This document shows, piece after piece, positions 5,220 to 26,042 of a stretch of DNA of 32,000 nt. The DNA lies in the NCBI GenBank assembly GCA_965230905.1, contig OZ246396.1, positions 900,001-932,000 of the forward strand, given 5' to 3'. The stretch comes from Candidatus Saccharimonadota bacterium. Lineage in GTDB: Bacteria > Patescibacteriota > Gracilibacteria > UBA1369 > 2-02-FULL-48-14. Position numbers and translations under genes: made by a program. How positions within the stretch are numbered: position 1 is the stretch's first letter; each line of letters begins with the position of its first letter. The notes under the pieces are model-generated. The model had not been told where the DNA came from. It saw nothing but the letters and a program-made list of their open reading frames with translations, and made no database searches.

Positions 5220-5332
5220 TTTTTATACTGTCTCAAATGTCTCATCTAGCCTGAAACGCCACAATTGTGTCTCACGGCAAGAAACGGTAGGATAAATCCG
5301 TCCCAAGGGTACTAGACCCGAGTGGCCAGCCA
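5220..5332 (+). repeat. long-form repeat, copy A (conserved block 1 + variable 21 nt + 28-bp core)
   Basis: 113 nt aligning without gaps to 22379-22491, with 9 differences by manual alignment. Contains TGTCTCA three times (5229, 5238, 5268), the palindrome CACAATTGTG (5260-5269), TATACT (5224-5229), and the core AAGGGTACTAGACCCGAGTGGCCAGCCA (5305-5332). Confidence 0.9.
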
Positions 5333-5354
5333 ATAATATTTATTAAAATACTGG

Positions 5355-6116
5355 TTGTATAACTATACTTTTACTGGCTTAGTTCATCCCGAACGAGTTA
5401 GCTTTTCCGTAAGTGAAGATTTGCCTTTTCAAATAACACACCCCGGTTTTAAAGTGAACGGTATAAGCAAGTTAAGATTCGACAAATCAAAAATAACACT
5501 TAGTTTTGCATCAGAGATTGATTATAGTAAAAATGCTGACTGTAACTTAGAGACTCTAAAAAATATTTTTGAAGAAAATATAAGGCTTGTTATTGATTCT
5601 TATTGTTATATAAATTCTTACTCTTACGATGTAGAGATCACGAAGGTGGTATGTAAAGAGTTACATATTGATAATACTTTTGGAGTTAGAGGTGAATGGA
5701 ATGTAAACAAAACCAAAGACGAATGTACTGCGGAATTCACAGAAATTTTACGCTTATTTGATCGTCCAGAAAGGATGTTTTTAAAAGATGTTTTTGCAGA
5801 TTTTCGCCGAGCAATCAAATATCCATCTATGACTGCAGGTTTTTGCTTCCGTGCAGTTGAGACAATAAGAAAATTTTATTTTGAAGATCAATCGATTTCA
5901 AATGACGACAAAAGACGCGAACGTGGGTGGAAAGAGCTTGGAGAAACGCTAGGATTTAAAGAAGCTGATTTTAAAGAGATAAAAGATTTTGCTTTACCCA
6001 ATAGGCACGGTGAGCATCGACAGATTTCTTATGAACAGAGGGAAAGGATTATGAACTTCACACGATCCATAATTAATAAGTTAATTCAAATTATTAAGGG
6101 TACTAGACCCGCTTAG
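5355..6116 (+). CDS. hypothetical protein occupying a repeat-bounded cassette
   Basis: 253-aa ORF with a TTG start and no internal Met until late. No family recognised. The last codons KGTRPA and the stop are encoded by the downstream core repeat. Confidence 0.5.
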   Translation: MYNYTFTGLVHPERVSFSVSEDLPFQITHPGFKVNGISKLRFDKSKITLSFASEIDYSKNADCNLETLKNIFEENIRLVIDSYCYINSYSYDVEITKVVCKELHIDNTFGVRGEWNVNKTKDECTAEFTEILRLFDRPERMFLKDVFADFRRAIKYPSMTAGFCFRAVETIRKFYFEDQSISNDDKRRERGWKELGETLGFKEADFKEIKDFALPNRHGEHRQISYEQRERIMNFTRSIINKLIQIIKGTRPA

Positions 6117-6123
6117 CCAGCCA
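6096..6123 (+). repeat. 28-bp core repeat, copy D1
   Basis: AAGGGTACTAGACCCGCTTAGCCAGCCA matches the core at 25 of 28 positions, in the same orientation. Confidence 0.8.
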
Positions 6124-6241
6124 TTGAAATTGGCGATCCCGAAGGGATGGACGGTTTCAAACTGAGAAGATGAGGATGAGAACCCAGGGCTCGTAAAATA
6201 GCGAACGAAGTGAGTGTCATCCCTCACCCCCAGCAATGATT

Positions 6242-6298
6242 TGCATGACAAAGCCTTGTGATCCGCAAAGCTAGCTTGGACGTGCATGCGGAGATACA
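6242..6298 (+). repeat. second conserved module (M2), copy 1
   Basis: TGCATGACAAAGCCTTGTGATCCGCAAAGCTAGCTTGGACGTGCATGCGGAGATACAG aligns to 11311-11369. The 27-nt centre CTTGTGATCCGCAAAGCTAGCTTGGAC (6255-6281) is identical to 11327-11353. Confidence 0.65.
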
Positions 6299-6340
6299 GT
6301 TGAATTTACTCCTTATAGAGTTTTTGGAAATAGCCCCTAT

Positions 6341-6374
6341 TACTAGACCCGTAGAGGTAGCTTGGACTGGCATG
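6341..6374 (+). repeat. hybrid repeat fragment (core centre joined to the M2 3' part)
   Basis: TACTAGACCCG (6341-6351) is identical to the core centre. The following TAGCTTGGACTGGCATG resembles the M2 segment TAGCTTGGACGTGCATG. Confidence 0.4.
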
Positions 6375-6436
6375 ATGGGAAAATCGCCTTTCGATTTTTT
6401 TTGTTTACACTCCAAAGAAGTATTAATCTTATATCC

Positions 6437-6694
6437 ATGTCTAATGAGTATAGAAATAACCATTACATCCCTCAGTGGCATCAAAAACGCTTTATTCCTC
6501 CTGGACAACAGGATCAGGACCTTTACTACCTTGAATTAAAACCAAGAGCATTTATTGATCCCCGTGGTGTCATTCATCAAATTGATCCGTTACATCAGTA
6601 AGGAACTAGGCTTTGTGTTGTTGAGAAGGATTTGTATACCCGTCAGTTTGGGACTGGTCTATCTACAGATGCGGAGAGTTATAGACAACATTAG
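6437..6694 (+). pseudogene. DUF4238-family gene remnant (in-frame stop, 3' truncated)
   Basis: MSNEYRNNHYIPQWHQKRFIP carries the N-terminal HY[IV]PQ signature of DUF4238. An in-frame TAA lies at 6599-6601. The frame continues GTRLCVVEKDLYTRQF to a TAG at 6692-6694. This is far shorter than the roughly 300 aa typical of the family. Confidence 0.55.
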
Positions 6695-6761
6695 AACCGC
6701 CATCGCGGCTAATCATATACAGTTTAAGTGGTTTGCAAAAACAGTGCTGGGCTTGTAGGAC

Positions 6762-7385
6762 TTATTGAATTTCCCTTAGAGATTTGAAGGCTCCTTCAAC
6801 AGAAATCGTCACTGTTACTGCTGAGCCAGTGCGATTTCTCCAAAACCAACCATGTGTTCCGTCGAATGCGGCAGTGATGGTTCCAGACATTTCGGTTTCA
6901 TCTCGCCCATCGTCGTATTCAAAATTTGAGCCTGTAGAGCTTTCGCCATGAACATTGTAGTTCAGGGCTCCTCCTTCTGTTTTCCATGTGTATTCAATTT
7001 CACTGTCTTTAGACATATCGACTTTGACTTCGGCCCATCCATCAGCTGCAATCGTTACCGTAAGTGAATCTTCATTTGCTTCACTACTGTTTTCTTCCTC
7101 TTCTTCCACAGCATCTTCACTTGGGACTTCATCCTCCATCGATTCTTCGAGAGCAAGTTGCTTCTCCTCCTGCATTTGAGCCTCTTCTTGAAGGGACTGT
7201 TTGATCTCACCCATCTCTGTTAAACCAAGCACTCTGCCTACTCTTAAAATGTCGATTCCATATTCAGCAGGCAAAACAATGGTGACAAGAATGACCAGAG
7301 CAATAATCCCTGCTCGTTTAGTAGACTTCTTCAGCTGCTCAGAAGAAGGTAATTCGTCCAAAGTAGGTTTGTGTGAGTTGTTCAT
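6762..7385 (-). CDS. membrane-anchored protein with acidic linker and beta-rich C-terminal domain
   Basis: 207 aa with a single TM (AGIIALVILVTIVLPA), an E/D-rich linker (EEEEENSSEANED) and a C-terminal domain. It starts 3 nt after the stop of the upstream HupE/UreJ gene. Confidence 0.6.
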   Translation of the reverse strand: MNNSHKPTLDELPSSEQLKKSTKRAGIIALVILVTIVLPAEYGIDILRVGRVLGLTEMGEIKQSLQEEAQMQEEKQLALEESMEDEVPSEDAVEEEEENSSEANEDSLTVTIAADGWAEVKVDMSKDSEIEYTWKTEGGALNYNVHGESSTGSNFEYDDGRDETEMSGTITAAFDGTHGWFWRNRTGSAVTVTISVEGAFKSLREIQ

Positions 7386-7388
7386 AAT

Positions 7389-8156
7389 TTAGAAAATATT
7401 AATGAATAGACCTGTAATTTGGTAGCCAACCAGTACAAAGCCCGCCGTCATAAGTGCTACATTAGCGGTGTAGGCATACCTCCAAAAGCTGGATGTGCGT
7501 CGCCAAGCGTTCATGGCAATCAAAATGGCACCCAATGCCAAGAGTTGACCAATCTCCACTCCCACATTGAAGGAGATCAAGTTCGGCAATAGACCATCGG
7601 GGGACAACTCGTATTCCTGTACTTTCGTGGCTAAACCGAACCCATGGAAAAGTCCAAAGATAAGGGTTGCAATCTTTGTATTGGGTTGATAGCCAAGCCA
7701 TCGTTGAAAAGCTCCTAAGTTATCCAAGCCCTTGTAAGCCACCGACAGACCGATGATCGCATCAATGATGTAGGCATTAATGCTGATATTGAAGAACACG
7801 CCTCCGAGCAAAGTAATAACGTGCCCGAGCGCAAAGAGAGAAACGTAAATTCCAATATCCTTATTTTTGTACAAAAAGAAAATGACTCCTAGGATGAAAA
7901 GCAGGTGATCATAACCCGTGACCATATGCTTTGCACCCAGGTAAATAAATGGCAGAATATTCACACCAGAGATTTCTTGAATATACCCTTTGTCTCCTGT
8001 GGTAACACCGTGAGCCAAAGCATCAGGAACAAAAAGTAAAAGCACCGCGAGGAATAAAGATAGAGAGCTTAAAACACGAACCCTCCGATCCGTGAATAAA
8101 AGTGATAAAAGCGTGGTCAAAGTGAGTGGTGTTATTGGTTTGTACGCTAAGGACAT
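7389..8156 (-). CDS. HupE/UreJ-family metal (Ni/Co-type) transport membrane protein
   Basis: The signal peptide ends ...ALAHG. The segment GAKHMVTGYDHLLFILGVIFFL and the multi-TM layout are typical of HupE/UreJ_2. Confidence 0.8.
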   Translation of the reverse strand: MSLAYKPITPLTLTTLLSLLFTDRRVRVLSSLSLFLAVLLLFVPDALAHGVTTGDKGYIQEISGVNILPFIYLGAKHMVTGYDHLLFILGVIFFLYKNKDIGIYVSLFALGHVITLLGGVFFNISINAYIIDAIIGLSVAYKGLDNLGAFQRWLGYQPNTKIATLIFGLFHGFGLATKVQEYELSPDGLLPNLISFNVGVEIGQLLALGAILIAMNAWRRTSSFWRYAYTANVALMTAGFVLVGYQITGLFINIF

Positions 8157-8181
8157 GGACGTGCGAATTTTATGGGACTAG

Positions 8182-8203
8182 TATATGAGCAAGTGCTCAT
8201 ATA
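8182..8203. promoter_or_regulatory. 10-2-10 palindrome TATATGAGCA-AG-TGCTCATATA; candidate ArsR/SmtB operator in a divergent promoter region
   Basis: Perfect inverted repeat between hupE-like (minus) and arsR-like (plus). It overlaps TATAAT at 8200-8205, which lies 10 nt upstream of the ATG at 8216. Confidence 0.6.
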
Positions 8204-8215
8204 ATCAACTCGTTT

Positions 8216-8611
8216 ATGAAGAATCACGACAGCTCGCTTCGTGCGCTAAACCCTGGATCAGTAAAAAAAGCTGCGAATCGCATGCCGGACGAAGCTTTAC
8301 TCTCGGTCGTGGTGGAGTGCTTTAAGGCTTTGGGCGACCCCACGCGTGCAAAAATCCTTTATGCGCTTCGTAGAGGACCTCTTTATGTTCGTGATTTAGC
8401 CATCCTCGCAGAAGTTTCGGAATCCGGAGTCTCCCATCAGCTTCGTTTACTTCGCAACACACAGTTGGTAAAGGTTGAACGTGAAGGAAATAATAAAAAA
8501 TATTCCATCGCTTATGCGCATATCGTTACTCTGCTCAAGGAAGCGGAATACTACGCTGATCATATTCGCAATCATTTACCTGATCATTCCTCTAAACCTC
8601 GATCTAAATGA
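8216..8611 (+). CDS. ArsR/SmtB-family metalloregulatory repressor
   Basis: LGDPTRAKILYAL...VRDLAILAEVSESGVSHQLRLLRNTQLVKVEREGNNKKYSI is the canonical ArsR wHTH. Its stop overlaps the next start (ATGA at 8608-8611). Confidence 0.9.
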   Translation: MKNHDSSLRALNPGSVKKAANRMPDEALLSVVVECFKALGDPTRAKILYALRRGPLYVRDLAILAEVSESGVSHQLRLLRNTQLVKVEREGNNKKYSIAYAHIVTLLKEAEYYADHIRNHLPDHSSKPRSK

Positions 8612-10449
8612 AAATTCTACGCACTTTCTTTAAAGCTCAATATCTTTGGGAGCTCCTGCGAATTGCCGTAGTGGGATTTGCGAGTCTTTTGTTTTACTTT
8701 GATATCCTGCCTTTGATTGGACTTTTAATTGCCATAGCTTTTGGACTTTATTCTCTTCTCAAAGGAGGTGTCCTTGCTCTTATTCATGAGCATAAGGTGG
8801 GAACAGAAATTTTCATATCGGTAGCTGTGGTGGTATCGGTTTTAGGTCAGGAATATTTGGCGGGTTCAGTGGTTTTAATGATTATCCTCATTGCGGAGTA
8901 CATCGCCAGTGCTAGTGGAGAAAGCGCGCGAGCTTCCATTAAAGAGCTGGTTGGTTCTGTGCCCAAAACAGCTCTGCTTATGCGTGGTGATAAAGAAAAA
9001 AATATTGCGATCGAAAGCTTGAAAGTTGGAGACATAGTTCTTGTGCGAGCGGGAGAGAAAATTCCAGTGGATGGCACTGTAGTGGGAGGCACGGCTTCTG
9101 TGAATCAAGCGCCTATTACAGGGGAAAGCACTCCTCAGGAAAAAGCGAAGGGCAGTGAGGTTTTCGCTGGAACGATTCTAGAGATTGGTGCTTTGGATAT
9201 TAAAATGACCAAGGCTGGAAAGGACACAGTGTTTTCGCGCATCATTGCTTTGGTGGAAGAAGCGCAAAGCCACCAAGCACCCATTGAAAAATTCACGGAT
9301 AAAGTGTCTTCTTACCTCATTCCCATCGTTTTTGTCTTTGTAGGTTTGGTCTACTTCTTTACTCGAGACATTCAGCTCGTCATTGCTCTTCTTATTTTTA
9401 CTTCTCCCGCGGAATTGGGGCTTGCTACACCGCTGGTTACCATTGCTGGAATTGCTAGAGGGGCTCGCGAAGGAATACTCATTAAAGGAGGGCTTTATTT
9501 GGAGGAAATGGCGCACATCAAGACCGTGGTTTTTGATAAGACCGGAACTTTGACCCTTGGCCAACCTGCTCTGGAGCGAGTACAGGTTTTGGACACTTCC
9601 CTTACCGAAAAACACATTGTGGAGCTTGCTGCGGCTTTGGAACGTCGTTCGAGTCATCCTCTCGCCAAAGCAGTTTTAGACTATGCCAAGAAAGAAAAAC
9701 TTTCTATCCCCGAACCCAGTGATTTTTTGGTGATTAAAGGGCGTGGGGTTCACGGCAAGGTGAAAGGTGAAAAAGTGATCTTGGGAAATGCAGCTTTCTT
9801 AAAAGAACAGAAGATTTCGATCCCCAAAGATAAAGCCACAGGGAATGAGACACTCGTTTACCTAGCGAATGATGAGAAGGTACTCGGACTTCTTTATTTT
9901 TCAGACACTATTCGGCCCGAAGCAAAAGCCAGTCTTAAACAGCTCACCAAGAGCGGAATTGAACACATCGTCATGCTCACGGGAGACAATGAGGCAACAG
10001 CTACTTTTGTTGCCAAGGAACTCGGAATCAAGGACTTTAGATATGAACTGCTTCCGGAAGATAAAATCCGAATCATTAAAGAGTTACAAAAGAATGGAGA
10101 AAGAGTAGCTATGGTCGGAGATGGGATCAACGATGCCCCGGCTCTTGTTCAATCAAATGTAGGCATTGCCATGGGTGCGATGGGAACAGAAGCTGCGATG
10201 GAGGCCGCTGATATTGTGCTCATGCAGGACCGCTTGGATAAAATTGCTGAGGCACGACTGCTCAGTCAAAAATCTTTCCGCACTATTAAGGAGAATATTT
10301 TTGTGGGCGTTGGGGTTGTGCATATCACTGGAATTATTTTGGTCCTTCTTAAAGTCCTTGGCCCCGTGGAGGCAGCAGCCATTCACCTAGTGCCAGACAC
10401 TTTGGTGTTCCTCAATTCAATTAAACTTTTACGAAAGAAATTGAAATGA
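8608..10449 (+). CDS. heavy-metal-translocating P1B-type ATPase (short form, no N-terminal HMA domain)
   Basis: Motifs DKTGTLT, SSHPLA, MLTGDN and GDGINDAPAL. The TM motif reads FTSPAELGLATP instead of CPC/SPC. Confidence 0.9.
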   Translation: MKILRTFFKAQYLWELLRIAVVGFASLLFYFDILPLIGLLIAIAFGLYSLLKGGVLALIHEHKVGTEIFISVAVVVSVLGQEYLAGSVVLMIILIAEYIASASGESARASIKELVGSVPKTALLMRGDKEKNIAIESLKVGDIVLVRAGEKIPVDGTVVGGTASVNQAPITGESTPQEKAKGSEVFAGTILEIGALDIKMTKAGKDTVFSRIIALVEEAQSHQAPIEKFTDKVSSYLIPIVFVFVGLVYFFTRDIQLVIALLIFTSPAELGLATPLVTIAGIARGAREGILIKGGLYLEEMAHIKTVVFDKTGTLTLGQPALERVQVLDTSLTEKHIVELAAALERRSSHPLAKAVLDYAKKEKLSIPEPSDFLVIKGRGVHGKVKGEKVILGNAAFLKEQKISIPKDKATGNETLVYLANDEKVLGLLYFSDTIRPEAKASLKQLTKSGIEHIVMLTGDNEATATFVAKELGIKDFRYELLPEDKIRIIKELQKNGERVAMVGDGINDAPALVQSNVGIAMGAMGTEAAMEAADIVLMQDRLDKIAEARLLSQKSFRTIKENIFVGVGVVHITGIILVLLKVLGPVEAAAIHLVPDTLVFLNSIKLLRKKLK

Positions 10450-11228: not shown

Positions 11229-11232
11229 AGCT

Positions 11233-11310
11233 GCCAAAGTTATGTCTCACGGCAAGAACTAATAGGGTGACACCGTTTCTAAGGGCTAGGCTAAGTGGCG
11301 TGCCATTAGG
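11233..11310 (+). repeat. degenerate long-form repeat, copy C (3' part of block 1 + variable region + diverged core)
   Basis: GCCAAAGTTATGTCTCACGGCAAGAA aligns to GCCACAATTGTGTCTCACGGCAAGAA of copy A. The following AAGGGCTAGGCTAAGTGGCGTGCCATT is a diverged core. It begins 5 nt after the uppP stop. Confidence 0.6.
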
Positions 11311-11369
11311 TGCATGAGGACAAAGTCTTGTGATCCGCAAAGCTAGCTTGGACATGCAAGTAGAGACGG
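11311..11369 (+). repeat. second conserved module (M2), copy 2, directly abutting the core
   Basis: Aligns to 6242-6298, and the 27-nt centre (11327-11353) is identical. Here it sits 5 nt after the core, against 118 nt in the other copy. Confidence 0.65.
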
Positions 11370-11390
11370 GCGGATCACCGCCTCTACTTT
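11360..11390 (+). terminator. GC-rich hairpin followed by TTTGATT (intrinsic-terminator-like)
   Basis: GTAGAG(ACGG)GCGG-ATCA-CCGCCTCTAC, then TTT. It lies between the convergent genes uppP and DUF305 and at the 3' end of the repeat unit. Confidence 0.45.
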
Positions 11391-11404
11391 GATTCAGCCA
11401 ACAA

Positions 11405-11992: not shown

Positions 11993-12057
11993 TAAAAATT
12001 GGGATTAAGAATTAAGTTTAAACCAAGTTTCTTCACCACCCATGCTTTTATAATTGA

Positions 12058-12288: not shown

Positions 12289-12296
12289 ATAAATGA

Positions 12297-12479: not shown

Positions 12480-12646
12480 ATATTTAATTGTTATTGATGA
12501 GATAAATAAGCTCTACTAAACTACTGGTTTGCCGGTGTACAACTTTTGCTTTGAATTCTTGATTAAACATGAAGGGGTAGTAAAAGAGTCAAAACTCAAA
12601 GAGGGGAACCAAGGGCATAGTTTTTCTCATAAAATAGTTATAAGTT

Positions 12647-18986: not shown

Positions 18987-19006
18987 TAATTGCTCACTAA
19001 TTTTTT

Positions 19007-22000
19007 ATGCTCAACCAAATTATTCTCTGGGCGATCAATCATAAGTGGACAACTATTATTGTCTCAGCCCTGATAGCAGTACTCGGAATCTTCAGTTTGC
19101 TCACTATGAAGGTTGATGTATTACCCAATATAAACAAACCAACGGTCGCTATTTTTACTGAAGGAGAAGGTCTTGCGCCGGAAGAAATTGAACGTCTTAT
19201 TTTAACTCCAATTGAATCAGCAGTTGCTGGTGCCCCAGGAGTTGAGCGTATCCGAGGAACCGCTTCGTTTGGCCTTGCCATCGTTCAAGTCGAATTTAAT
19301 TGGGGGTCAGATATTTATCGTAACCGCCAAATCATTCAAGAAAGAATTGCTCAGTTAAATCTCCCTGAAGGTGCAAAACCAACGCTTGGACCTGTATCTT
19401 CAGTCATGGGAGAGATCATGTGGGTAGGTATATCTTCAAAGGAAGCTAATCTTGATGGTATGGACCTCAGAACTCTTGCTGACTGGACGATACGTCCTGC
19501 TTTATTACGCTTACCTGGAGTTTCGGATGTCATTGTTATGGGTGGTGATGTGCGTGAGTGGCAAATTAATATTAATGCTGAGCGACTTGCTCAATATGAA
19601 CTTACTGTAGAAGATATTGTAGAAAATGTTGAAGGTGCGCTACAGAATCGTGGGGGTGGCATTCTTGTAGAGAATGAACTTGAATACCCGATACGAATCT
19701 TGGTAGCTCCTAGTGAAATTGATGAACTTCAATCTCTTGGCGTGGGTTCTTTCAATGATACGCCTATAGTTTTAGGCGATGTAGCGAGCCTCATAGAAGG
19801 GCCAAGCCCCGTAAGAGGCGCAGCTTCTATTGATGGAAAAGAGGGAGTTGTGATGAGGATTGTTAAGCAGCCTGAAGCAGAGACTCTTGAGGTTACCAAG
19901 CTTGTTGATGAAACACTGGAGTCGCTTGAAAGAAGTCTTCCAGAGGGAATAGAACTTCACAATGACCTTTTTAGGCAAGAATGGTTTATTACTGCAAGCC
20001 TTGAAAATGTTATTGAGGCACTACGAGATGGAATAATCCTCGTGATTATTATTTTGATTCTTTTTTTGGCAAATACTAGAACAACTCTTATTACGCTGAC
20101 AGCGATCCCCATGAGTATTCTGGTCACCGCGATCGTATTCAAGCTCTTAGGTTTTTCGGTCAACGTTATGACTCTGGGGGGTATTGCGGTAGCGATTGGC
20201 GAACTCGTTGATGATGCTATTGTTGATGTAGAAAATGTCTTTACGAGACTTCGTGAATGGAGAAAAAATGGCAAACAAGAACCTCTGGAAAAAGTTGTTT
20301 TTAAAGCATCGAGCGAAGTTCGAAATTCCATAGTCTATGCGACACTGCTCGTAGCAATTGTTTTCTTGCCCATCTTTTTTATTCCAGGAGTAGAAGGAAA
20401 GCTTTTAGCTCCTCTCGGACTTGCGTATCTTACTTCACTTATTGCCTCATTATTTGTTTCTCTTACCCTCACACCAGCACTTTGCGTTCTCCTTTTAGGA
20501 TCAAGCAAAAAAAAGGAAACCCATGAAGAAACAAGATTTGTTCGATGGGTTAAGAAAAATATTACTCCTCTAATAGGCTGGAGCATTAATCATTCGCGCA
20601 CACTTATTACAGGAATTGTAGGTGGTCTTATGATTGCCATCGTGCTTTTCATGGCTGCCGGAAAAGAAGGTGTACCGCCTTTTAATGAAGGAGCGGTTAC
20701 GGTTGGGGTCGTTATGCCTGTAGGGACTGACCTTCAGACATCCAATGATTTTGCTTCTCAAGTTGAAACAAAGATACGTGAAATCCCTGGGATTGTACGC
20801 GTAAGTCATTTGACCGGCCGTGCGGGGGCAGATGCACATGATAGTGGCGCAAACACGAGTGAAATCCAAGTAACTTTTGATCACGGACTTGAAGAAGAGC
20901 GTACACGTCTATTTGGAGAAATTCAAAAGGTACTTGATGAATTTCAAGGTGCAGACTTTAGCCTTGGGCAACCAATTACTCATAAAATGGAAGAGCTCTT
21001 ATCTGGCGTTCGTGCTCCGATCGTCATTAAAGTATTTGGTGATGATCTTGATGCTATGAGAGAAGTAGCGGAACAAGTTCGGGATGAACTAAAACTTCAA
21101 CCTGGAGTTACGAATGCCCAAATTCCAAAAGAAGTACTCATCCCTGAATATCGGATATTTCCAAACCGTGAAAGACTCGGCTCACTTGGTCTGTCTTCAG
21201 GAGAAATCGCAGATGAACTTGAAGCCGGCCTCTTGGGTGTATCGGTGGGTCAGGTACAGCTTGGATCAGCTCAAGTACCCGTTGTAGTGCGCTATGACAT
21301 TTTCAGTAAAGGGAATATGGCCGCAATCAGAAATTTATCCTTTGCAGGAGATCAAGTTACTACATTGAACGACACTTCTGATATTCAAATTCAAGGAGGC
21401 TTAAACCGTCTTAGTCATGAGGGTGGAAAGCGAGTCATAATCGTAAGCGCTAATTATCAGGGAAAAGATATTGTTGGTGCGGTAGAAGAGGTAAAACAGG
21501 ATTTTGAATCCATAGAACTTCCACAAGGGATAACTCTTTCTTTTGAAGGAACATATAAAAGCCAAAAGGAAAATTCCCTGCTTCTTCTAATGCTATTTGG
21601 TGTCGGACTTTGCTTTATTTTTGGAATTTTGTATCACGCCTTTCGGTCAAGCGCTATTGTCATCCTTATAATGCTTAACATCCCAACCGCACTTATAGGA
21701 GGAATAATAGGGGTATGGGTAACTGGTGGTGTAATCAGTTTGGCCCATCTTATTGGTTTCATTTCTTTAGCTGGAATCGTTTCTCGAAATGGAATCATGC
21801 TAATTAGTCACACTATTAACTTAGTGAAAAAAGAAGGCTTACCATTCACACCTGAAACCATGCTGCGTTCAACTCTTGATCGAGTGGTGCCCGTACTTAT
21901 GACATCTTTGACTGCACTCCTTGCTCTTATTCCATTCTTATTGTCATCAGAGGCCCCAGGGAAAGAAATGCTTTATCCGTTAGCTGTTGTTATTTTTAGC

Positions 22001-22111
22001 GGTTTGACTGTATCAACGATTATTTCATTATTCTTAACCCCTTCTCTTTTCTATCGCTTTGGTAAAAAGACAATGCTTGCACATACCACTTCAATCGAAA
22101 GTTCAAATTAA
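19007..22111 (+). CDS. heavy-metal-efflux RND transporter (CusA/CzcA family)
   Basis: 1034 aa with 12-TM RND architecture. The TM4 motif GGIAVAIGELVDDAIVDVEN resembles the CusA segment [20 protein letters not shown]. Confidence 0.95.
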   Translation: MLNQIILWAINHKWTTIIVSALIAVLGIFSLLTMKVDVLPNINKPTVAIFTEGEGLAPEEIERLILTPIESAVAGAPGVERIRGTASFGLAIVQVEFNWGSDIYRNRQIIQERIAQLNLPEGAKPTLGPVSSVMGEIMWVGISSKEANLDGMDLRTLADWTIRPALLRLPGVSDVIVMGGDVREWQININAERLAQYELTVEDIVENVEGALQNRGGGILVENELEYPIRILVAPSEIDELQSLGVGSFNDTPIVLGDVASLIEGPSPVRGAASIDGKEGVVMRIVKQPEAETLEVTKLVDETLESLERSLPEGIELHNDLFRQEWFITASLENVIEALRDGIILVIIILILFLANTRTTLITLTAIPMSILVTAIVFKLLGFSVNVMTLGGIAVAIGELVDDAIVDVENVFTRLREWRKNGKQEPLEKVVFKASSEVRNSIVYATLLVAIVFLPIFFIPGVEGKLLAPLGLAYLTSLIASLFVSLTLTPALCVLLLGSSKKKETHEETRFVRWVKKNITPLIGWSINHSRTLITGIVGGLMIAIVLFMAAGKEGVPPFNEGAVTVGVVMPVGTDLQTSNDFASQVETKIREIPGIVRVSHLTGRAGADAHDSGANTSEIQVTFDHGLEEERTRLFGEIQKVLDEFQGADFSLGQPITHKMEELLSGVRAPIVIKVFGDDLDAMREVAEQVRDELKLQPGVTNAQIPKEVLIPEYRIFPNRERLGSLGLSSGEIADELEAGLLGVSVGQVQLGSAQVPVVVRYDIFSKGNMAAIRNLSFAGDQVTTLNDTSDIQIQGGLNRLSHEGGKRVIIVSANYQGKDIVGAVEEVKQDFESIELPQGITLSFEGTYKSQKENSLLLLMLFGVGLCFIFGILYHAFRSSAIVILIMLNIPTALIGGIIGVWVTGGVISLAHLIGFISLAGIVSRNGIMLISHTINLVKKEGLPFTPETMLRSTLDRVVPVLMTSLTALLALIPFLLSSEAPGKEMLYPLAVVIFSGLTVSTIISLFLTPSLFYRFGKKTMLAHTTSIESSN

Positions 22112-22192: not shown

Positions 22193-22378
22193 TACGTCCT
22201 TATATTCCAAGAGTTCCATGACTTTTCCCTGCGTGTCTTTAGCCACCAATAAAACTGCTTCTTCATGTGGCATCAAGTTTTGAAGTTTGATCTAATTTTA
22301 GGATTGTCAGTGGTACCATGTCAGGATGATTACCCCGCAACTTTTTAGCCAATTTAGCAAGTCCGTGACTTCGCCTCC

Positions 22379-22491
22379 TTTTTATACTGTCTCAAATGTC
22401 TCATTTAGCCTGAAATGCCACAATTGTGTCTCACGGCAAGAATAGGTAAGATGAGACAGTCCCAAGGGTACTAGACCCGAGTGGCCAGCCA
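22379..22491 (+). repeat. long-form repeat, copy B
   Basis: Aligns to 5220-5332 at an offset of 17159 nt. The core is at 22464-22491. The variable 21 nt contain TGAGACA, which forms a 7-bp inverted repeat with the third TGTCTCA. Confidence 0.9.
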
Positions 22492-22555
22492 TTACGGGCA
22501 GTTTGAAAGCCTATGACCCACTTTCCTAGGGAGAAATTTGAGGAGTTTTAGGTTC

Positions 22556-22978
22556 TTACTCATCTCTAGCAGTTAGATGAATAATCTCTGGCGGTATTTT
22601 TCTGACACGGATTTTGGATTCTTTATTCAAAAACATTTTCACGAGTCGATGAAGTCCATCTAAAGTGAGCCATTTCCCTTTTTTATTTTTCATAATATCG
22701 ATGGGATAGGACGTGTCACATTCTTTGATTTTATCTCTATGATACGGGTAAGCCTCTAGATTGTTTATAACTTCGTTTGGCGTAATCACAATATTTCCAT
22801 CTTCATCCTCCCAAAAAGGAATATCTAAAATCCATAGAAGTTCATTTATATCCATTACTTCCACCGGCACATCCAGTGCCCACAATTTATTGTTATCTCT
22901 CCAGAAGGGTAAATCGAAAGAATGTTCCTCATGACGAGGATCAACATAGATTTCTTTTTTTGGTTTCTTCTTTTTCAT
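22556..22978 (-). CDS. ParB/Srx-fold-like small protein
   Basis: 140 aa. WLTLDGLHRLVKMF resembles the DGxHR motif of ParB-like nuclease / sulfiredoxin-fold domains. Its start overlaps the upstream stop (TAATG). Confidence 0.55.
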   Translation of the reverse strand: MKKKKPKKEIYVDPRHEEHSFDLPFWRDNNKLWALDVPVEVMDINELLWILDIPFWEDEDGNIVITPNEVINNLEAYPYHRDKIKECDTSYPIDIMKNKKGKWLTLDGLHRLVKMFLNKESKIRVRKIPPEIIHLTARDE

Positions 22979-23901
22979 TAAATTTTGTCAGGTATTTGGA
23001 GCATGAACTCATCATGTAGACCTTTTCTTATGTCTGTCAGTTCCTGGGTCTCAATGGTTTTTTCTAGGGAGACAGCAAAGGCACCTCCTTCTCTTTGAAG
23101 TTTGCTGTAGTGGTCTGCACCTCTTGATTCGGGAGGAGTCTCCGCAGGGAAGAAATAGTCATCTTCTCCTAAAGCAAGAGAAGGATCTCCAGTAAGGACT
23201 TTATCGAGTTTCTCTGCTTCAGATGGATTTTTTGCAGCGTACCCTTGTTCTAATGCCCAAGATACTGTGTCGAGCTGTCTTCCCGGAATGATGAATTGTA
23301 TATTTTTGCCCATTTGGTTTGCTCGTACTTGTGCGAAGGCCTCTGCACCTTTTAAGAGTTCTGTGCCGAGTTCACGGTAGCGACGAACGGCATAGGGTTC
23401 GGGTTCAGTCTCCTCGAAGTGGTCTGATCCCACTTCTACTCTAATGCATGCGACTTCCTCATCGTAAAAATCTCTAGATCTAAATTCCTCCATAAGAGCT
23501 GTTGGATCACTGGCTTTCGGAATTTTTTTCCACAGGAAGAAATGCAGTTCCTCTTTTTTTTCTCCATTTTCATGAGTGAAAAAGGTTTTCGCCGCAAAAG
23601 CGGTAAGAGGGATGTCTGGGTCAAGAACTTTATATTCTAAGGGCACCCATTTTGCACAGCCGGGTCTGCCCATTCTTCCGCCCAATCCTCCAGGAGCATC
23701 TTCAGTAACTTCTGAATAGTTTTGAGCCAAAGTAGTTCCCCATGTTTCCAGCTGTTCTCTCAAGACCGTTTTGTTTTTGATTTCAATCTGCTCAGTGTCA
23801 TACATTTTTGGGTCCGGTCTTGTCGCAACGTAATCCGTCCTTCCTTGGTACAAAGAGTGTATTTCGTCGTAAGCTGGACATCTGATTCTATCAGGAGGCA
23901 T
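22978..23901 (-). CDS. hypothetical protein with GNAT-like acetyltransferase core (tentative)
   Basis: 307 aa. ACIRVEV...YAVRRYRELGTELLKGAEAFAQ...TVSWALEQGYA resembles the GNAT beta4-alpha3 (R/Q-x-x-G-x-G/A) and C-terminal motifs. Recognised by eye only. Confidence 0.45.
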   Translation of the reverse strand: MPPDRIRCPAYDEIHSLYQGRTDYVATRPDPKMYDTEQIEIKNKTVLREQLETWGTTLAQNYSEVTEDAPGGLGGRMGRPGCAKWVPLEYKVLDPDIPLTAFAAKTFFTHENGEKKEELHFFLWKKIPKASDPTALMEEFRSRDFYDEEVACIRVEVGSDHFEETEPEPYAVRRYRELGTELLKGAEAFAQVRANQMGKNIQFIIPGRQLDTVSWALEQGYAAKNPSEAEKLDKVLTGDPSLALGEDDYFFPAETPPESRGADHYSKLQREGGAFAVSLEKTIETQELTDIRKGLHDEFMLQIPDKI

Positions 23902-23958
23902 CTTTCAAATTATTTCTCTTTATTGTATCATAAATTCTCCGATCTTACTATTTTTCCA

Positions 23959-23986
23959 AAGGGTACTAGACCCGAGTGGCCAGCCA
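23959..23986 (+). repeat. 28-bp core repeat, copy E
   Basis: Identical over all 28 nt to the cores of copies A and B, in the same orientation. Confidence 0.85.
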
Positions 23987-23990
23987 ACAT

Positions 23991-24254
23991 ATGAAAGCTA
24001 GATTGATCAAATTGAAGCAAGTGGTAGCTCCAGCCAAGCTCATGGTCGTTACGAAAAAGCGATCGGCAGATGAGATTTATGAGGCTGTTCAATCTGGTGC
24101 AGAATATTTGGGTGAAAACCGTGTTCAAGAGCTAGTAGCAAAATACAGTCCAGGGTTAATGGAAGCGATTTCTTTAGCAGGTGCGGAAATCCATTCCTCA
24201 AATGGAGATGCCCGAAGGCCATTCGGACATGGGCAGGATGATGACTTTTCCTGA
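23991..24254 (+). pseudogene. YggS-family (PLP-binding) gene fragment, N-terminal about 65 aa only
   Basis: LMVVTKKRSADEIYEAVQSGAEYLGENRVQELVAKY matches the YggS pattern LLAVSKTK...GENYVQE. Similarity is lost after about residue 65. Full-length proteins are about 230 aa. Confidence 0.65.
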
Positions 24255-24456
24255 AATGCTCAAAACGAGTGCAGAGGAAGTGCCTGTGTTTTCGTTTATC
24301 GTTTTCAACTCACGCGAACACCGCGATGAAGTGAACGCCAAAGTGATGGCTGATCCTGAAATGACTCCAGATCAATACAAAGACATGGAAATGCCGTTGG
24401 ACATGAATCGCATGGCGTATGGAGGATTCCAGAGTTTTGTGAATCACCAAAGCTAA
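24181..24456 (+). pseudogene. DUF1428-family gene fragment, C-terminal part only
   Basis: FPEMLKTSAEEVPVFSFIVFNSREHRDEVNAKVMADPEM...PLDMNRMAYGGFQSFV matches the C-terminal two thirds of DUF1428. The usual N-terminus (MxYVDGFV...) is missing. The frame differs from the YggS fragment. Confidence 0.6.
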
Positions 24457-24465
24457 TTGATTCGA

Positions 24466-24491
24466 CTAGGGTTCTAGATCCGAGGGGCCAG
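24466..24491 (+). repeat. core repeat, diverged copy F
   Basis: CTAGGGTTCTAGATCCGAGGGGCCAG matches about 22 of 26 positions of the core, in the same orientation. Confidence 0.65.
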
Positions 24492-24494
24492 TTT

Positions 24495-24996
24495 TTATTT
24501 TAAAACATCTGGGCCAAGCTTTTTCGCCTCTTCTATGAAGAAATCTTGCCAAGCTTTTTTGTCGAGATCTTGGATCATATGGGGATAATCTTCGGCTTTG
24601 GTGGCTTTGACAAATTGAGTGCCGAGTTGGATGGGGTCTATGTGCCAGTCGAATTTGATTTTTGCTGTCTTGATCAAATCGTGGATTGAAAGGGTTTCTT
24701 TTTTGCAAATACAATAAAGATCAATGTAATCGCGTGCTTTGCAGCGTTGGTAGATGGTGAAGAGTTTGTTCACAGCAATGTCTAAGAGGCTGTCGACGGC
24801 GACGCCAAATTTTTTCTGACCAGTCTTAATCCTTGGGAATGGGTAATAGGTGAACTCCATCTTCAGAATAACGGTGGAAGAGATAAAAACCCGCGAGTGC
24901 GGTGCCTCCGCTCAAGTAGAAATTTTTCACTAAAAAAGGGTGCCGCCCTATTTCTTCAAGTAAAGCAATTTGTCGTTCAGTGAGGATTTTTTCCAT
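24495..24996 (-). pseudogene. AbiEii/AbiGii-type nucleotidyltransferase toxin gene, frameshifted and probably internally deleted
   Basis: The N-terminal frame (ATG 24996) reads MEKILTERQIALLEEIGRHPFLVKNFYLSGGTALAGFYLFHRYSED and stops at 24826-24828. The C-terminal part (24495..24860) is in another frame and carries VAVDSLLDIAVNKL...RDYIDLY. Confidence 0.65.
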
Positions 24997-25183
24997 TGAG
25001 TAGCAATTGAATGAACTTTGCTCGCGATGGGTCCAGTATGAGTTTGGAGAAGTACTTTTTCACGTCTTTCTTTGCTATTTTCTTTCCGTTCAAACCGAAG
25101 TTGATGGCCTGTTCCAGGCTCCAAATTTTGAACTTTTCGGAGTTTTTATTTAAAGCGGCTGTGTTGGTATTCCAATTGTACAT
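24977..25183 (-). CDS. small protein upstream of the AbiEii remnant (antitoxin-position gene)
   Basis: 68 aa. It overlaps the AbiEii-like start by 20 nt. KIWSLEQAINFGLNGKKI...LDPSRAKFIQLLL resembles small proteins I recall upstream of such toxins. Tentative. Confidence 0.5.
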   Translation of the reverse strand: MYNWNTNTAALNKNSEKFKIWSLEQAINFGLNGKKIAKKDVKKYFSKLILDPSRAKFIQLLLNGKNPH

Positions 25184-25208
25184 GGCTTCATTCTACATGA
25201 TCCCGACA

Positions 25209-25226
25209 AAGGGCACTAGACCCGAG
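25209..25226 (+). repeat. core repeat, left part only, copy G (right arm replaced)
   Basis: AAGGGCACTAGACCCGAG matches 17 of 18 positions of the core left part. The right arm is CTGAATCG instead of TGGCCAGCCA. It overlaps the last codons and stop of the kinase gene. Confidence 0.6.
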
Positions 25227-25974
25227 CTGAATCGTTTGTAATGATCCAAGCGGCTGACTCTGCAGTGGGTTTGACGTGTTCGTAATGCATTCTACGGACG
25301 GTTTCCCATAGATATTTAAGTTCTGTTTCTAAAGTGCGGCCAGCTAGTTTGTTTTCTAGTACGTCGCGGCGAACTCTTCTTCTCATGCACTCGAGGAAAG
25401 GAACGTGTACGTAAACACCCATCCCGGGACTTGCTTGGATTCTGCCGTCCAAAACAAAAAGGCCTTCGACGATGATCAGTCTCTGTGGATCTATCCATTG
25501 TGTCCCGTCCGGCTCATGGGTGGTCTTGCTGTATACCGGAGCCTCTGCTTTTCTACCGGCGGCTAACTCCATAATGACTCTGTTGGCTGAATCAAGATCG
25601 ACAGCAGCGGGATGGTCCCAATTGGGTACGCTTGCCGCAATCATTGCTTTGTCGCCTGTATAAAAATGATCGGTTGAGAGTATAAGAGAGTCTGAAACTT
25701 CGGCTGCTAGTTTTTCTGCGATCACGCTTGTTTTCCCTGAACCGGTTGGGCCGGCTACACATATAACCACAGAATTGCTTTGTGCTAAGCTAGCGTGAAT
25801 GGCTTGGGTCAACGCAGCGACTCCTTCTTGTACCGCAAGAACTCGCTGGTCAGGCCGTGGCTGCATGGTTTCCACTTCATCCAATTGGCCTCGTACCTCC
25901 TGAATTAAAGGATCTAGCTCCGGATGGTGTTCTCCGGCCAGATCGAGGAGTTCACGTAGATTTAATTCTTTCAT
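25216..25974 (-). CDS. uridine kinase / phosphoribulokinase-family P-loop kinase with an N-terminal extension of about 65 aa
   Basis: VICVAGPTGSGKTS (Walker A), ILSTDHFY and LIIVEGLF are typical of Udk-family kinases. Confidence 0.8.
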   Translation of the reverse strand: MKELNLRELLDLAGEHHPELDPLIQEVRGQLDEVETMQPRPDQRVLAVQEGVAALTQAIHASLAQSNSVVICVAGPTGSGKTSVIAEKLAAEVSDSLILSTDHFYTGDKAMIAASVPNWDHPAAVDLDSANRVIMELAAGRKAEAPVYSKTTHEPDGTQWIDPQRLIIVEGLFVLDGRIQASPGMGVYVHVPFLECMRRRVRRDVLENKLAGRTLETELKYLWETVRRMHYEHVKPTAESAAWIITNDSARV

Positions 25975-26025
25975 AAGCGAGTCTTTTTTAGAAGATCCGA
26001 TTTTAACGCATTTGTATTTGAAGTA

Positions 26026-26042
26026 AAGGGTACGAGCCTGAG
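26026..26042 (+). repeat. weak core-like sequence, copy H
   Basis: AAGGGTACGAGCCTGAG shares the first 8 nt and the terminal GAG with the core. Its flank TTGATTTT loosely resembles the right arm of copy G. Confidence 0.25.

Follow-up and report, generated by a model that had tools for sequence, protein, structure and literature searches.

Tandem islands and gene cassettes of Gracilibacteria bounded by mimics of the tRNA-Gln 3' end, probable attachment-site ends of large serine recombinase elements

Results

The window analysed here, a 32,000-nt stretch of a Gracilibacteria contig (OZ246396.1), is a tandem composite made up of a defence-island end, a pair of metal-resistance islands and cassettes of one or two genes without a recombinase. 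A perfect 28-nt core at 5305-5332 (plus strand), a candidate attachment-site arm ending CCAGCCA, forms the right end of the recombinase-carrying defence island. It is followed by a plus-strand single-ORF cassette (5333-6095) encoding a DUF8168 protein, whose reading frame (5355-6116) has its last codons and stop inside the next core (6096-6123, plus strand). Beyond lie the cargo regions of metal islands C1 (6762-11228; HupE/UreJ, ArsR, a P-type ATPase and UppP/BacA) and C2 (11405-22111; DUF305, YHS, a CsoR-family repressor, an amine oxidase, VTT/DedA, an HlyD-like adaptor and an RND pump).

Two further perfect plus-strand cores, at 22464-22491 and 23959-23986, enclose a minus-strand two-gene cassette (22541-23958) encoding proteins of 140 aa and 307 aa that have no Pfam match. 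The second of them precedes two fused gene fragments (23987-24465, plus strand), one unassigned but homologous to locus L015 and the other the C-terminus of DUF1428, a cassette that is intact and first in the array at L036. A degenerate core (24466-24494, plus strand) and a decayed AbiE toxin-antitoxin cassette (24495-25208, minus strand), copies of which have other neighbours at L003 and L040, come next. The core at 25209-25226 (plus strand) retains its left and middle parts only, its right part being replaced by the 3' end of a PRK/uridine-kinase-family gene (25216-25974, minus strand), whose last four codons are read through the complement of this core. This gene is the last recognisable array unit; a last, heavily decayed core fragment lies at 26026-26045 (plus strand), and G+C climbs to core-genome level from ~26-27 kb. 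With its flanks included, the order is LA-core no. 0, the recombinase island, LA-core no. 1, a cassette, a core, the metal islands, LA-core no. 2 and cassettes.

The first-pass annotation had described the 28-mer as identical at 5305, 22464 and 23959 and as a 25/28 match at 6096, with all copies on the plus strand and delimiting units of 763, 1467 and 479 bp. All of this was borne out: dinucleotide-preserving shuffles gave 0 matches to the 28-mer, the 6096 copy carries 3 mismatches, the spacings are as given, and the minus strand contains no copy even when 8 mismatches are allowed. The diverged copies that it had placed near 24466 and 25209 are present, and a recount gave 21/28 (~24466-24467) and, for the left part alone, 16/17 (~25209-25210). 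Of its three fragments, the one at 6341 stands as a 12-nt exact match to the middle of the core, whereas those at 11281 and 26026 are heavily degenerate.

An alignment of 137 unique core copies out of 91 public loci defined the conserved unit as 29 nt, AAAGGGTACTAGACCCG(A/C)(G/C)T(A/G)GCCAGCCA, always on one strand. Its information content falls from >1.3 to <0.5 bits at both edges and is ~0 past position -3 upstream of the core, where no conserved inverted partner is found. Mismatches grow with distance from the LA-linked copy, which is perfect; left-only and right-only hybrid copies also occur. Genomes have one core locus, sometimes two, and a single matching stretch is seen even on 0.7-1.25 Mb contigs. 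Scatter in both orientations was not seen, and a REP/BIME-like dispersed repeat does not fit the single stretch per contig and the lack of opposite-strand copies.

The 5305 and 22464 cores each form the 3' terminus of a 115-nt repeat (5220-5335 versus 22379-22494, 91% identical); both this long form and the true 29-nt unit had been overlooked in the earlier reading. LA platform no. 1 (5217-5304, plus strand), which forms the inner portion of the right end of an island, contains a conserved T-run, TGTCTCA boxes and an outward sigma70-like promoter (TTGTGT-17 nt-TAGGAT), and it is 75-99% identical to LA elements at >20 other loci, with sharp boundaries. LA platform no. 2 (22376-22463, plus strand) was recognised by its repeat match to no. 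1 and its conserved promoter geometry. The -35/17 nt/-10 arrangement is kept in 40 of the 41 unique LA-cores, and this comparative evidence suggests that LA drives cassette expression. A third, decayed copy of the repeat (11191-11300, plus strand) overlaps the uppP stop and accounts for the fragment previously noted at 11281; at L033 an intact LA-core is directly preceded by a uppP homologue of the same orientation. LA-core no. 0 of the source genome lies outside the window, before the recombinase island. Genes upstream of LA differ from locus to locus.

The core can be aligned in register with the 28 nt at the 3' end of tRNA-Gln, which comprise T arm, acceptor strand and encoded CCA. The last 7 nt (CCAGCCA) are identical, overall identity is 17/28, and the invariant columns common to both are GGGT.C.A..CC.......CCAGCCA. 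The core does contain the hairpin GGGT-ACTAG-ACCC that had been pointed out, but its folding is not superior to that of shuffled sequence (z = -0.4), and the core has no Rfam match; the hairpin occupies the place of the tRNA T arm, so that a structural role of its own need not be assumed. tRNA-Gln is present in 27 of the 91 core-bearing loci (19 unique) and other tRNAs in only 3. At the tRNA-Gln loci the cores always lie 3' of the tRNA end on the same strand, the first of them 102-5656 nt away. The tRNA acceptor stem is intact without element-supplied sequence. Core arrays headed by tRNA-Gln were found at 19 Peribacteria/Gracilibacteria loci. At L074 and L029 a single ORF is fitted exactly between CCA and core, and a MazF-type cassette begins at most 6 nt past CCA whether beside tRNA-Gln, a core or an LA-core. 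The site is therefore no orphan motif: the core mimics the 3' end of tRNA-Gln, its chromosomal target. The tRNA-Gln heading the composite island of the source genome should lie left of record position 1,110,162.

The core at 22464 continues into a proximal P' arm (TTACGGGCAGTTTGAAAGCCTATGACCCACTTTCCTAGGGAGA, 22492-22540, plus strand) that shares 95% identity with the arm behind LA-core no. 0 and differs from the arm after tRNA-Gln at L112 and L113 by one mismatch over ~50 nt. This core and arm together make an attP-like junction. The same P' arm stands behind three different left partners, namely tRNA-Gln(CTG/TTG) at L112, L113, L108, L106 and L117, tRNA-Ser at L115, and LA-core no. 0 and core 22464 in the source genome, and it adjoins the 3' end of a Resolvase + Recombinase + Zn_ribbon gene. 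This sharing of one arm, beside the recombinase gene, by tRNAs and core implies that cores are element-borne ends. All hybrid junctions were seen (tRNA-Gln|P', tRNA-Ser|P', LA-core|P' and core|other), and the synteny between L039 and L070 ends at the last base of the core.

Decayed arms mark the left ends of the metal islands. A second type of left-arm (P') segment (6124-6208, plus strand), consisting of a covarying hairpin ATTGAAA...TTTCAA and then GAGGATGAGAACCCAGGGCTCG, is found at L019 after tRNA-Gln and again after a core. Next to it, local alignment to the tRNA-Gln of L004 and its downstream arm identified a degenerate tRNA-Gln 3' end (GTGAGTGTCATCCCTCACCCCCAGCA, 6209-6236, plus strand), a relic of a tRNA|P' junction. 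The adjoining P' arm remnant (6237-6400, plus strand) is 85% identical to the arm next to tRNA-Gln at L004; it contains the half-core 6341-6357 that had been listed as a fragment, and no recombinase gene follows. Another decayed P' arm (11301-11400, plus strand) is 90% identical to 6247-6294 over 11319-11366.

A large serine recombinase gene of ~425 aa is conserved among these elements. The annotation had noted no recombinase in the window, and tblastn of this recombinase against the window gave no match, but the copy of the source genome lies ~9 kb to the left. Its intact gene has lost its own P' arm. The protein (P0122) combines PF00239, PF07508 and PF13408 (Resolvase, Recombinase and zinc ribbon), the solved structures closest to it are those of the TP901-1 integrase and SprA/YokA catalytic domains, and the family is 57-96% identical across many Peregrinibacteria. 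Recombinase and core co-occur in other genomes too: in six cases the gene and a perfect LA-core share a contig (source genome, L070, JACCDN010252991 (17.4 kb), JABJMC010000005, CAZFAV010000001 and FLOH01000289). Seven recombinase loci have a tRNA on the other strand, 0.2-3.5 kb downstream of the gene (Gln in 6/7, Ser in 1/7), and at L106, L108 and L112-L117 the gene occupies the tRNA-proximal end of the element. An identical recombinase, P0121, is accompanied by defence cargo in one location and by metal cargo in a second.

Discussion

We consider it likely that the 28/29-mer is the element-borne attachment-site half of elements that insert at tRNA-Gln through a large serine recombinase and stack up as islands and mini-units. 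The core would comprise the P arm and the crossover region ending CCAGCCA, and the elements, a family of Peribacteria/Gracilibacteria, would enter at the encoded CCA end of tRNA-Gln by means of the ~425-aa enzyme. In tRNA orientation, a full element would read tRNA-Gln, a P' arm of ~0.2 kb in which the core's middle occurs twice more, the recombinase gene on the reverse strand, variable defence or metal-resistance cargo, terminase-like, methylase and ParB-methylase genes, the LA platform with its outward promoter, the core and the flank. The core presumably mimics the tRNA-Gln 3' end since one protein must bind both. Repeated insertion at one place would then have stacked several such islands together with numerous units of one or two genes that lack a recombinase; each unit terminates in a core, and all have the same orientation. 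Applied to the window, this would give the right end of a recombinase-bearing defence island at 5305, a one-gene cassette, two metal islands with decayed P' arms as left ends, and four small cassettes decaying with distance. The arms, linkages and array anatomy are observed directly; we infer that the recombinase cuts in or next to CCAGCCA and that it also moves mini-cassettes in trans.

Large serine recombinase att sites are ~40-50 bp long, with inverted half-sites around a central dinucleotide. Here the P arm (26-29 nt) and the proximal P' arm (~26-31 nt) are of suitable size; inverted symmetry between them is weak, being confined to GGGT...ACCC, and the core's middle is repeated in direct orientation. 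It weighs against the preferred reading that canonical enzymes of this class recombine attP with attB only, a reaction that would not by itself build tandem arrays and internal P|P' junctions. Moreover, a recognisable P' arm follows only 12-22 of ~140 cores, which leaves most mini-cassettes without a conserved right half-site.

This absence of the P' arm at most cassette left ends would fit an arrangement in which the cores are att sites at tRNA-Gln but the small arrays are built by another recombinase, such as a tyrosine integrase encoded elsewhere, the serine recombinase moving large islands only. tRNA 3' ends are usually used by tyrosine integrases (PMC4701971). Nevertheless, we regard this as unlikely: 249 neighbouring ORFs and 72 cassette ORFs include no recurrent tyrosine recombinase family, the identical core closes recombinase-bearing islands and mini-cassettes alike, and some mini-cassettes open with genuine P' arms.

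Less probable still is a mainly RNA-level or regulatory role, in which the core would precede every gene of an LA-driven operon as a 5' leader or as a processing or stabilising element, and cassette shuffling would be a by-product of homologous recombination between repeats. The conserved promoter ends 12-21 nt before the LA-linked core, 65/79 cassette ORFs (82%) are co-oriented with the cores, and start codons often lie 10-40 nt past a core, all as expected of such an element. However, cores flank reversed genes and 16-kb islands as well, the core's folding and Rfam results and the existence of left-only and right-only hybrid copies speak against it, and the register match to tRNA-Gln and the P' arm shared on the recombinase side have no RNA-level explanation.

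In-place duplication by a Cas1/casposase-like integrase, giving leader, repeat, giant 'spacer' and repeat, would account for a sharp-edged repeat unit, a promoter-bearing leader ahead of it and leader-distal decay. We hold it very improbable, as positions 14-17 vary inside single arrays (e.g. L021, L026, L042, L053 and L055), which implies that cores are not copied from a neighbour; the core also closes islands beside tRNA-Gln, and Cas1 was not seen nearby. A true integron or integrase-less attC cluster with an unusual attC might be suggested by the array anatomy, with its platform that bears a promoter, its compact cassettes that do not, its toxin-antitoxin and orphan genes and its decay with distance from the platform. 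It is the least probable reading of all: no IntI-type gene adjoins a platform, no Phage_integrase family recurs among the 249 neighbouring ORFs and none lies within 18 kb of the window ends, R''/R' boxes and a conserved inverted partner 5' of the core are missing, and the site is a tRNA 3'-end mimic tied to a serine recombinase.

With element-borne att halves as the preferred reading, the repeats are site-specific recombination junctions delimiting short, mostly single-ORF units, as the first-pass annotation had proposed. It had also been right that the site lacks GTTRRRY/RYYYAAC and is no attC, the 29-mer containing no GTT box. Of its two interpretations, tandem site-specific integration survives and an integron array does not, given the tRNA-Gln target and the serine recombinase. 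Gene-content variation bounded by the motif exists between species; within the Hainich population none was seen, the contigs carrying three window cassette proteins having identical context throughout without presence/absence variants. Excised circles, circular junctions and empty sites were absent among the contigs retrieved, which, like the uniform Hainich context, counts against the preferred reading.

The closest parallel is offered by the composite islands of the staphylococcal cassette chromosome (SCC), in which recombinase-less modules (ACME, COMER, ars/cop) stand in tandem and are mobilised in trans (PMC7029739; bioRxiv 10.1101/336396). In both systems the insertion point is the 3' end of a single conserved gene, the same short direct repeat bounds each module, recombinase-bearing and recombinase-less modules are combined in tandem (here in the window plus flanks and at the 19 tRNA-Gln-headed loci), and metal resistance and defence genes are carried. 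Unlike SCC (CcrAB/CcrC), which targets rlmH/orfX, the present elements target the tRNA-Gln CCA end, use one ~425-aa recombinase that shares Pfam domains with Ccr but is probably only distantly related to it, include many single-ORF modules of 0.3-1.3 kb, have an outward promoter at the element end and reside in an uncultured Patescibacteria lineage.

tRNA-targeting islands normally use tyrosine integrases and are flanked by an exact copy of the tRNA 3' end (PMC4701971). They share with the elements described here integration at a tRNA gene 3' end, a flanking repeat related to that end and the accretion of several islands at one tRNA, but here the recombinase is of the serine type and only CCAGCCA is exact, the other 21 nt being a conserved mimic. 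Large serine integrases of phages and ICEs typically target protein-coding genes with 2-21-bp repeats (PMC4701971). A118, TP901-1 and SPbeta SprA have the same Resolvase, Recombinase and zinc ribbon architecture and an integrase gene at one element end adjoining attL; whereas those typically integrate singly, the elements described here use a tRNA end and accumulate as tandem units that end in a P arm.

The resemblance to integrons lies in an outward-promoter platform followed by compact, mostly promoterless single-ORF cassettes in the same orientation, in their content of orphan genes, toxin-antitoxin pairs and small enzymes, and in the best-preserved site adjoining the platform. In contrast to integrons, neither an IntI tyrosine integrase nor a folded attC with R/L boxes is present, all cassettes have the same site sequence and the target is tRNA-derived. 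The arrays are an integron look-alike with different machinery in tiny uncultured bacteria, and if the recombinase moves the mini-cassettes too, they would constitute a capture system that resembles integrons but relies on a serine recombinase.

A one-way 29-nt core repeat

Perfect copies of the 28-mer AAGGGTACTAGACCCGAGTGGCCAGCCA are located at 5305, 22464 and 23959, and a copy with 3 mismatches at 6096. Weaker cores were identified at 24467 (21/28) and 25210 (16/17, left part only), along with scraps at 6341, 11281 and 26026, and every copy in the window is on the + strand. None of 100 dinucleotide-preserving shuffles of the sequence yielded a match to the 28-mer. The cores at 5305 and 22464 form the 3' ends of a 115-nt repeat (5220-5335 and 22379-22494, 91% identity), whose decayed third copy (11191-11300) overlaps the end of uppP. 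Neither Rfam, applied with gathering and E-value thresholds, nor ARAGORN detected a known RNA or tRNA in the window.

A database search with the exact pattern, tolerating the two variants found in the window, retrieved 35 motif stretches from species-representative genomes and 56 from metagenome contigs, nearly all hosted by Peribacteria, Peregrinibacteria or 'Gracilibacteria' MAGs. Small core-bearing contigs binned as Nitrospirota, Gammaproteobacteria, KSB1 and Bdellovibrionales (L010, L012, L013, L015, L032 and L034) are, on the basis of their sequence, probably mis-binned Peribacteria/Gracilibacteria. Contigs, including those of 0.7-1.25 Mb, carry one stretch each, with two in four MAGs, and all copies of one locus share the same strand, also when 8 mismatches are tolerated. 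Across 137 unique copies the conserved unit comprises 29 nt, AAAGGGTACTAGACCCG[A/C][G/C]T[A/G]GCCAGCCA, and has sharp edges, the information content collapsing at either end. Positions 14-17 vary among the cores of single arrays (e.g. L021, L026, L042 and L053), which argues that cores travel with their cassettes and are not copied in place. A link of these positions to the upstream or downstream cassette was dropped as a candidate because homologous cassette pairs were too few.

A viral origin was ruled out by the absence of both the core and LA, the ~85 nt directly upstream of certain cores, from 2.9 million viral contigs. Likewise, a dif/Xer site was ruled out: the core is without dyad arms, and GC skew keeps its sign across the window. 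Nearby CsoR, FeoB, CDF and ZIP genes raised the possibility that the core is the operator of a metal regulator; these genes are instead metal-resistance cargo of the islands.

Cores delimit short cassettes

The proposal of the first-pass annotation that one-way repeats enclose short gene cassettes was borne out far beyond the window: 70 unique inter-core units were extracted, including those of other loci, each locus using one strand, with a median length of ~620 nt and mostly 300-1300 nt long. The ORFs are predominantly co-oriented with the cores (65/79), and a typical one starts 10-40 nt past one core and ends at or inside the next. In 13 of 72 cassette ORFs (18%) the stop codon lies within the core, giving C-termini such as ...KGY* and ...GTRPE*, and about a dozen of the 72 encode lipoprotein signal peptides. 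The majority had no Pfam match; the remainder comprised toxin-antitoxin parts (AbiEii, MazF, RelB/YafQ, SocA, Fic), small enzymes and SLH proteins, and no recombinase was detected by Pfam among the cassette ORFs.

The 1,488-bp contig L099 (Logan ERR3858133) corresponds to window positions 22498-23985, i.e. one cassette. An excised circle was ruled out as its source, since short-read assemblies break exactly at cores and the contig is thus an artefact of the repeat. Strain-level cassette variants were not found in the Hainich samples, in which every context was identical.

A serine recombinase gene beyond the left end of the window

No recurrent recombinase family emerged among 249 neighbouring ORFs of 185-700 aa, none was found downstream of the arrays, and tblastn detected no recombinase remnant within the window. 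The expectation that the array lacks a recombinase holds for the window alone. Beyond its left end, a Hachiman system, terminase-like genes, a methylase and a ParB-methylase are followed by the gene of a 426-aa protein with Resolvase, Recombinase and zinc-ribbon domains. A homologue is located 1.2 kb from a core in locus L070, and a database search with the 426-aa protein retrieved a tight family (57-96% identity), many members of which are encoded on core-bearing contigs themselves. The identical recombinase P0121 occurs at two tRNA-Gln genes, with defence cargo beside one of them and metal-resistance cargo beside the other. Catalysis by the serine recombinase is putative.

A probable recombination junction at the 3' end of tRNA-Gln

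ARAGORN identified tRNA-Gln in 27 of 91 core-bearing loci (19 unique) and just three other tRNAs. At all 19 unique loci the cores share the strand of the tRNA gene and lie downstream of its 3' end, the first core at a distance of 102-5656 nt. Genes situated between the CCA and the core encode a 133-residue lipoprotein in L074, where the core follows 399 nt on, and a 200-residue membrane protein in L029. A single MazF-type cassette starts at most 6 nt from the CCA beside tRNA-Gln (L026), a core (L033) and an LA-core (L033). In two genomes sharing 89% identity upstream of the core, all similarity is gone from the core's last base on. The core and the tRNA-Gln 3' end align in the same columns and have GGGT.C.A..CC.......CCAGCCA in common.

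Conversely viewed from the enzyme, tRNA-Gln is located 0.2-3.5 kb past the recombinase stop on the opposite strand (L112, L113/114, L106, L108/109, L116 and L117), and tRNA-Ser takes its place in L115. Read in the orientation of the tRNA, its end ...CCCCAGCCA is followed by TTACGGGCAGTTTaAAAGCCTATGACCCACTTTCCTAGGGAGAAGGGGAAGCGAACCC..., an internal half-core AATGGTACTAGACC and the recombinase stop. This sequence between tRNA and recombinase gene, the P' arm, also follows the window core at 22464 with one mismatch in ~50 nt, and a recognisable version follows the tRNA-Ser of L115. A fourth LA-core in this genome, situated ~5 kb past the recombinase gene, is followed by the arm in complete form, which terminates in a C-terminal fragment (51 residues) of another recombinase copy. 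Significant similarity to a tRNA-linked arm was found downstream of 12 cores. Of 139 cores, 22 have a 'second partial core' at a fixed distance of 23 or 28 nt, which is the proximal P' arm. A constant P' arm whose left partner is either a tRNA end or a core constitutes the attL/attP pattern of a single recombination system. This pattern suggests that exchange occurs in or next to CCAGCCA, and the intact tRNA acceptor stem places it at the extreme 3' end.

P' arms contain two extra copies of the core middle in the same orientation, TGACCCGAGT at +23 or +28 nt and GGTACTAGACCCG at +115 to +245 nt (L112 11285-11467; L108 13155-13282; L106 12517-12633; window 6341-6357). They are possible accessory binding sites, which would be unusual for att sites of large serine recombinases. 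Separately, a hairpin with compensatory changes, ATTGAAA..CCGGC/GCCGG or ATCCC/GGGAT..TTTCAA, followed by GAGGATGAGAACCCAGGGYTCG.AAGCGAAGCG, occurs at window 6124-6200, in L019 after both tRNA-Gln and a core, and in L047, L015 and L078. It has no match in Rfam and, together with its downstream sequence, may represent a P' arm of a second type or else an RNA motif that has so far escaped recognition.

LA resembles an outward promoter

The 41 unique LA-cores fall into a short class of ~106 nt and a long class of ~128 nt. In 40 of them a TGTCTCA box provides a -35-like hexamer, TTGTCT or TTGTGT, separated by 16-18 nt (mostly 17) from a TAnnnT hexamer that ends 12-21 nt before the core; the long class has an additional hexamer pair upstream. 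The hexamers keep promoter-like sequence while the spacer between them is free to change, comparative evidence for LA as a putative outward sigma70-type promoter. A structured small RNA was considered for the LA-core on account of a long hairpin in the 22379 copy (z = -3.1). It is missing from the 5220 copy and many orthologues, and this reading was therefore given up in favour of the promoter. The core adjacent to LA is nearly always perfect, and mismatches climb with distance from LA (0,0,1,2,8 in L010; 0,0,2,4 in L035; 0,0,7 in the window).

The TGTCTCA boxes form 2-4 direct repeats with a 9-nt period and serve also as -35 (window 5226-5250 and 22385-22409; L008 2672-2720, with four boxes), an arrangement resembling response-regulator sites of the pho-box type.

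Across loci no gene is constantly found upstream of LA, the neighbours being either housekeeping genes (TypA, DEAD helicase, Asn/Asp-tRNA synthetase, M23 peptidase) or island genes. In the window this position is held by a gene on the - strand (4876-5148) for a highly basic, lysine/serine-rich protein of 90 aa without Pfam match. In L034, L039 and L070 the gene in this place encodes a CsoR-family repressor and is accompanied by a palindrome resembling an operator; the lysine-rich protein is unrelated to these repressors. A cysteine-rich protein of 361 aa (1900-2985, + strand), with weak matches to a double zinc ribbon and, at the C-terminus, to HTH_17 (excisionase-type), is encoded 1.4-2.9 kb upstream of LA in each of four species (window, L018, L021 and L055). 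It is a candidate for the directionality factor of the element or for an accessory protein that binds DNA.

Organization of the window

To the left of 5217 lies the final part of the defence island that bears the recombinase gene, and LA-core no. 1 (5217-5332) forms the right end of this island. The island ending at core 5305 includes a Hachiman pair (HamA and a DEAD/ResIII helicase), a ParB-N6/N4 methylase, a second methylase and a 137-aa/522-aa pair; its genes map to 6691-9946 (about 9-13 kb left of the window start) and 1951-5939 of L110, the flanking part of this genome. Homologues of the 137-aa/522-aa pair elsewhere match terminase small-subunit-like HTH and Terminase_6C, so that the island backbone looks phage- or satellite-derived. 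The defence slot looks swappable, with Hachiman here and MmeI-type RM plus SNF2/PLD, Cap4-nuclease or large helicases elsewhere.

A DUF8168 cassette ending in core 6096 is followed by a nest of junction relics (6124-6400), which comprises a second-type P' segment, the degenerate 3' end of a tRNA-Gln gene (6209-6236) and a homologue of the P' arm that adjoins tRNA-Gln in L004. The fragment noted previously at 6341 is real as a short match, and its identity is that of the internal half-core of this P' arm. A 54-codon ORF at 6440-6601 (MSNEYRNNHYIPQWHQKRF...) is possibly, by eye, a truncated DUF4238-type N-terminus and thus another decayed cargo gene.

The 15-kb heavy-metal block (6762-22111) contains genes for a 207-aa membrane protein of unknown kind, HupE/UreJ, ArsR, a P-type ATPase, UppP, DUF305 and YHS proteins, a CsoR-family repressor, an amine-oxidase-like flavoprotein, VTT/DedA, a His-rich lipoprotein, an HlyD-like adaptor and an RND pump. 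Its first island, C1, ends at the decayed LA-core on the uppP stop; in L033 a uppP homologue lies directly upstream of an intact LA-core in the same orientation. The second, C2, extends from a decayed P' arm to LA-core no. 2. Comparable metal cargo is found beside the identical recombinase in L113/L114.

Past the attP-like junction at 22464-22540 follow a two-gene cassette, fused fragments, a decayed AbiE pair and the kinase gene, whose last four codons read through the complement of the left-only core. An intact MNT/HEPN (Polbeta nucleotidyltransferase/HepT) toxin-antitoxin pair directly past the last core fragment (26084-26878) may be the oldest cassette of the array. G+C content is 0.38-0.45 and rises to ~0.50 past 26-27 kb.

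Proposed tandem accretion and comparison with known systems

The best-supported account is tandem accretion at tRNA-Gln of elements of one serine-recombinase family, the conserved P arm (the core side of the attachment site) ending each unit. Textbook large serine integrases recombine attP with attB only, and Ccr recombinases are reported to be permissive in site choice. Arrays could grow by a similarly permissive, Ccr-like choice of sites, through cointegrate circles, or by RecA-dependent exchange between conserved LA-core-P' segments. Since most mini-cassettes lack the conserved right half-site, we only infer their independent mobility.

The closest working analogue is the SCC composite island, in which ccr-bearing and ccr-free modules, among them ars/cop and mercury modules, form a tandem series at a single gene's 3' end; direct repeats flank each module, and CcrAB mobilises them (PMC7029739; 10.1101/336396). 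In streptococcal ICEs, tyrosine integrases target tRNA 3' ends and serine integrases protein genes (PMC4701971); unlike tRNA-linked genomic islands, the elements described here employ a different enzyme class and a mimic, not a copy, of the tRNA end. The layout is like that of integrons, but the system fails on both defining features, IntI and attC. Of the integron-like array proposed by the first-pass annotation, the cassette layout stands, and a recombinase-less, non-attC integron gives way to a serine recombinase whose probable target is tRNA-Gln. A literature search on integrons, gene cassettes or serine recombinases of Peregrinibacteria/Peribacteria returned nothing relevant. The feature is real, and goes beyond an ordinary tRNA island through its enzyme-target pairing, promoter-bearing end and dense single-ORF arrays.

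A more far-reaching proposal, which we regard as possible and rather doubtful, is that Peribacteria/Gracilibacteria possess a functional analogue of integrons built on a large serine recombinase, in which circles of one ORF and one 29-nt site are captured in tandem and expressed. The minimal circle would consist of one ORF and the 29-nt site that mimics tRNA-Gln, optionally accompanied by a ~40-nt P' arm; it would be captured at the tRNA-Gln CCA end or behind the outward LA promoter and expressed from there, and fusion of the site to the 3' ends of genes may create new cassettes.

Mobile elements are scarcely described in these organisms. The locus represents the main gene-flux hotspot of a bacterial class whose members are ultra-small and uncultured, and its probable driving enzyme and target are identified along with it. 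The 29-mer and LA can serve as tags to locate accessory islands (defence, metal resistance, lipoproteins) in Peribacteria/Gracilibacteria MAGs, whose assembly breaks are accounted for by these repeats. A serine integrase reading the universal CCA end of a tRNA via a 29-nt mimic would have an unusual target for its enzyme class, and such recombination would offer a compact, well-defined att pair for engineering. If mini-cassettes moved in trans, they would constitute an integron-like capture platform on unrelated machinery, which bears on the origins of cassette systems. If the integron-analogue proposal is true, bacteria with ~1-Mb genomes would harbour a second, independently evolved system of gene-cassette capture and expression, which would diversify their surface lipoproteins, toxin-antitoxin pairs and defence genes.
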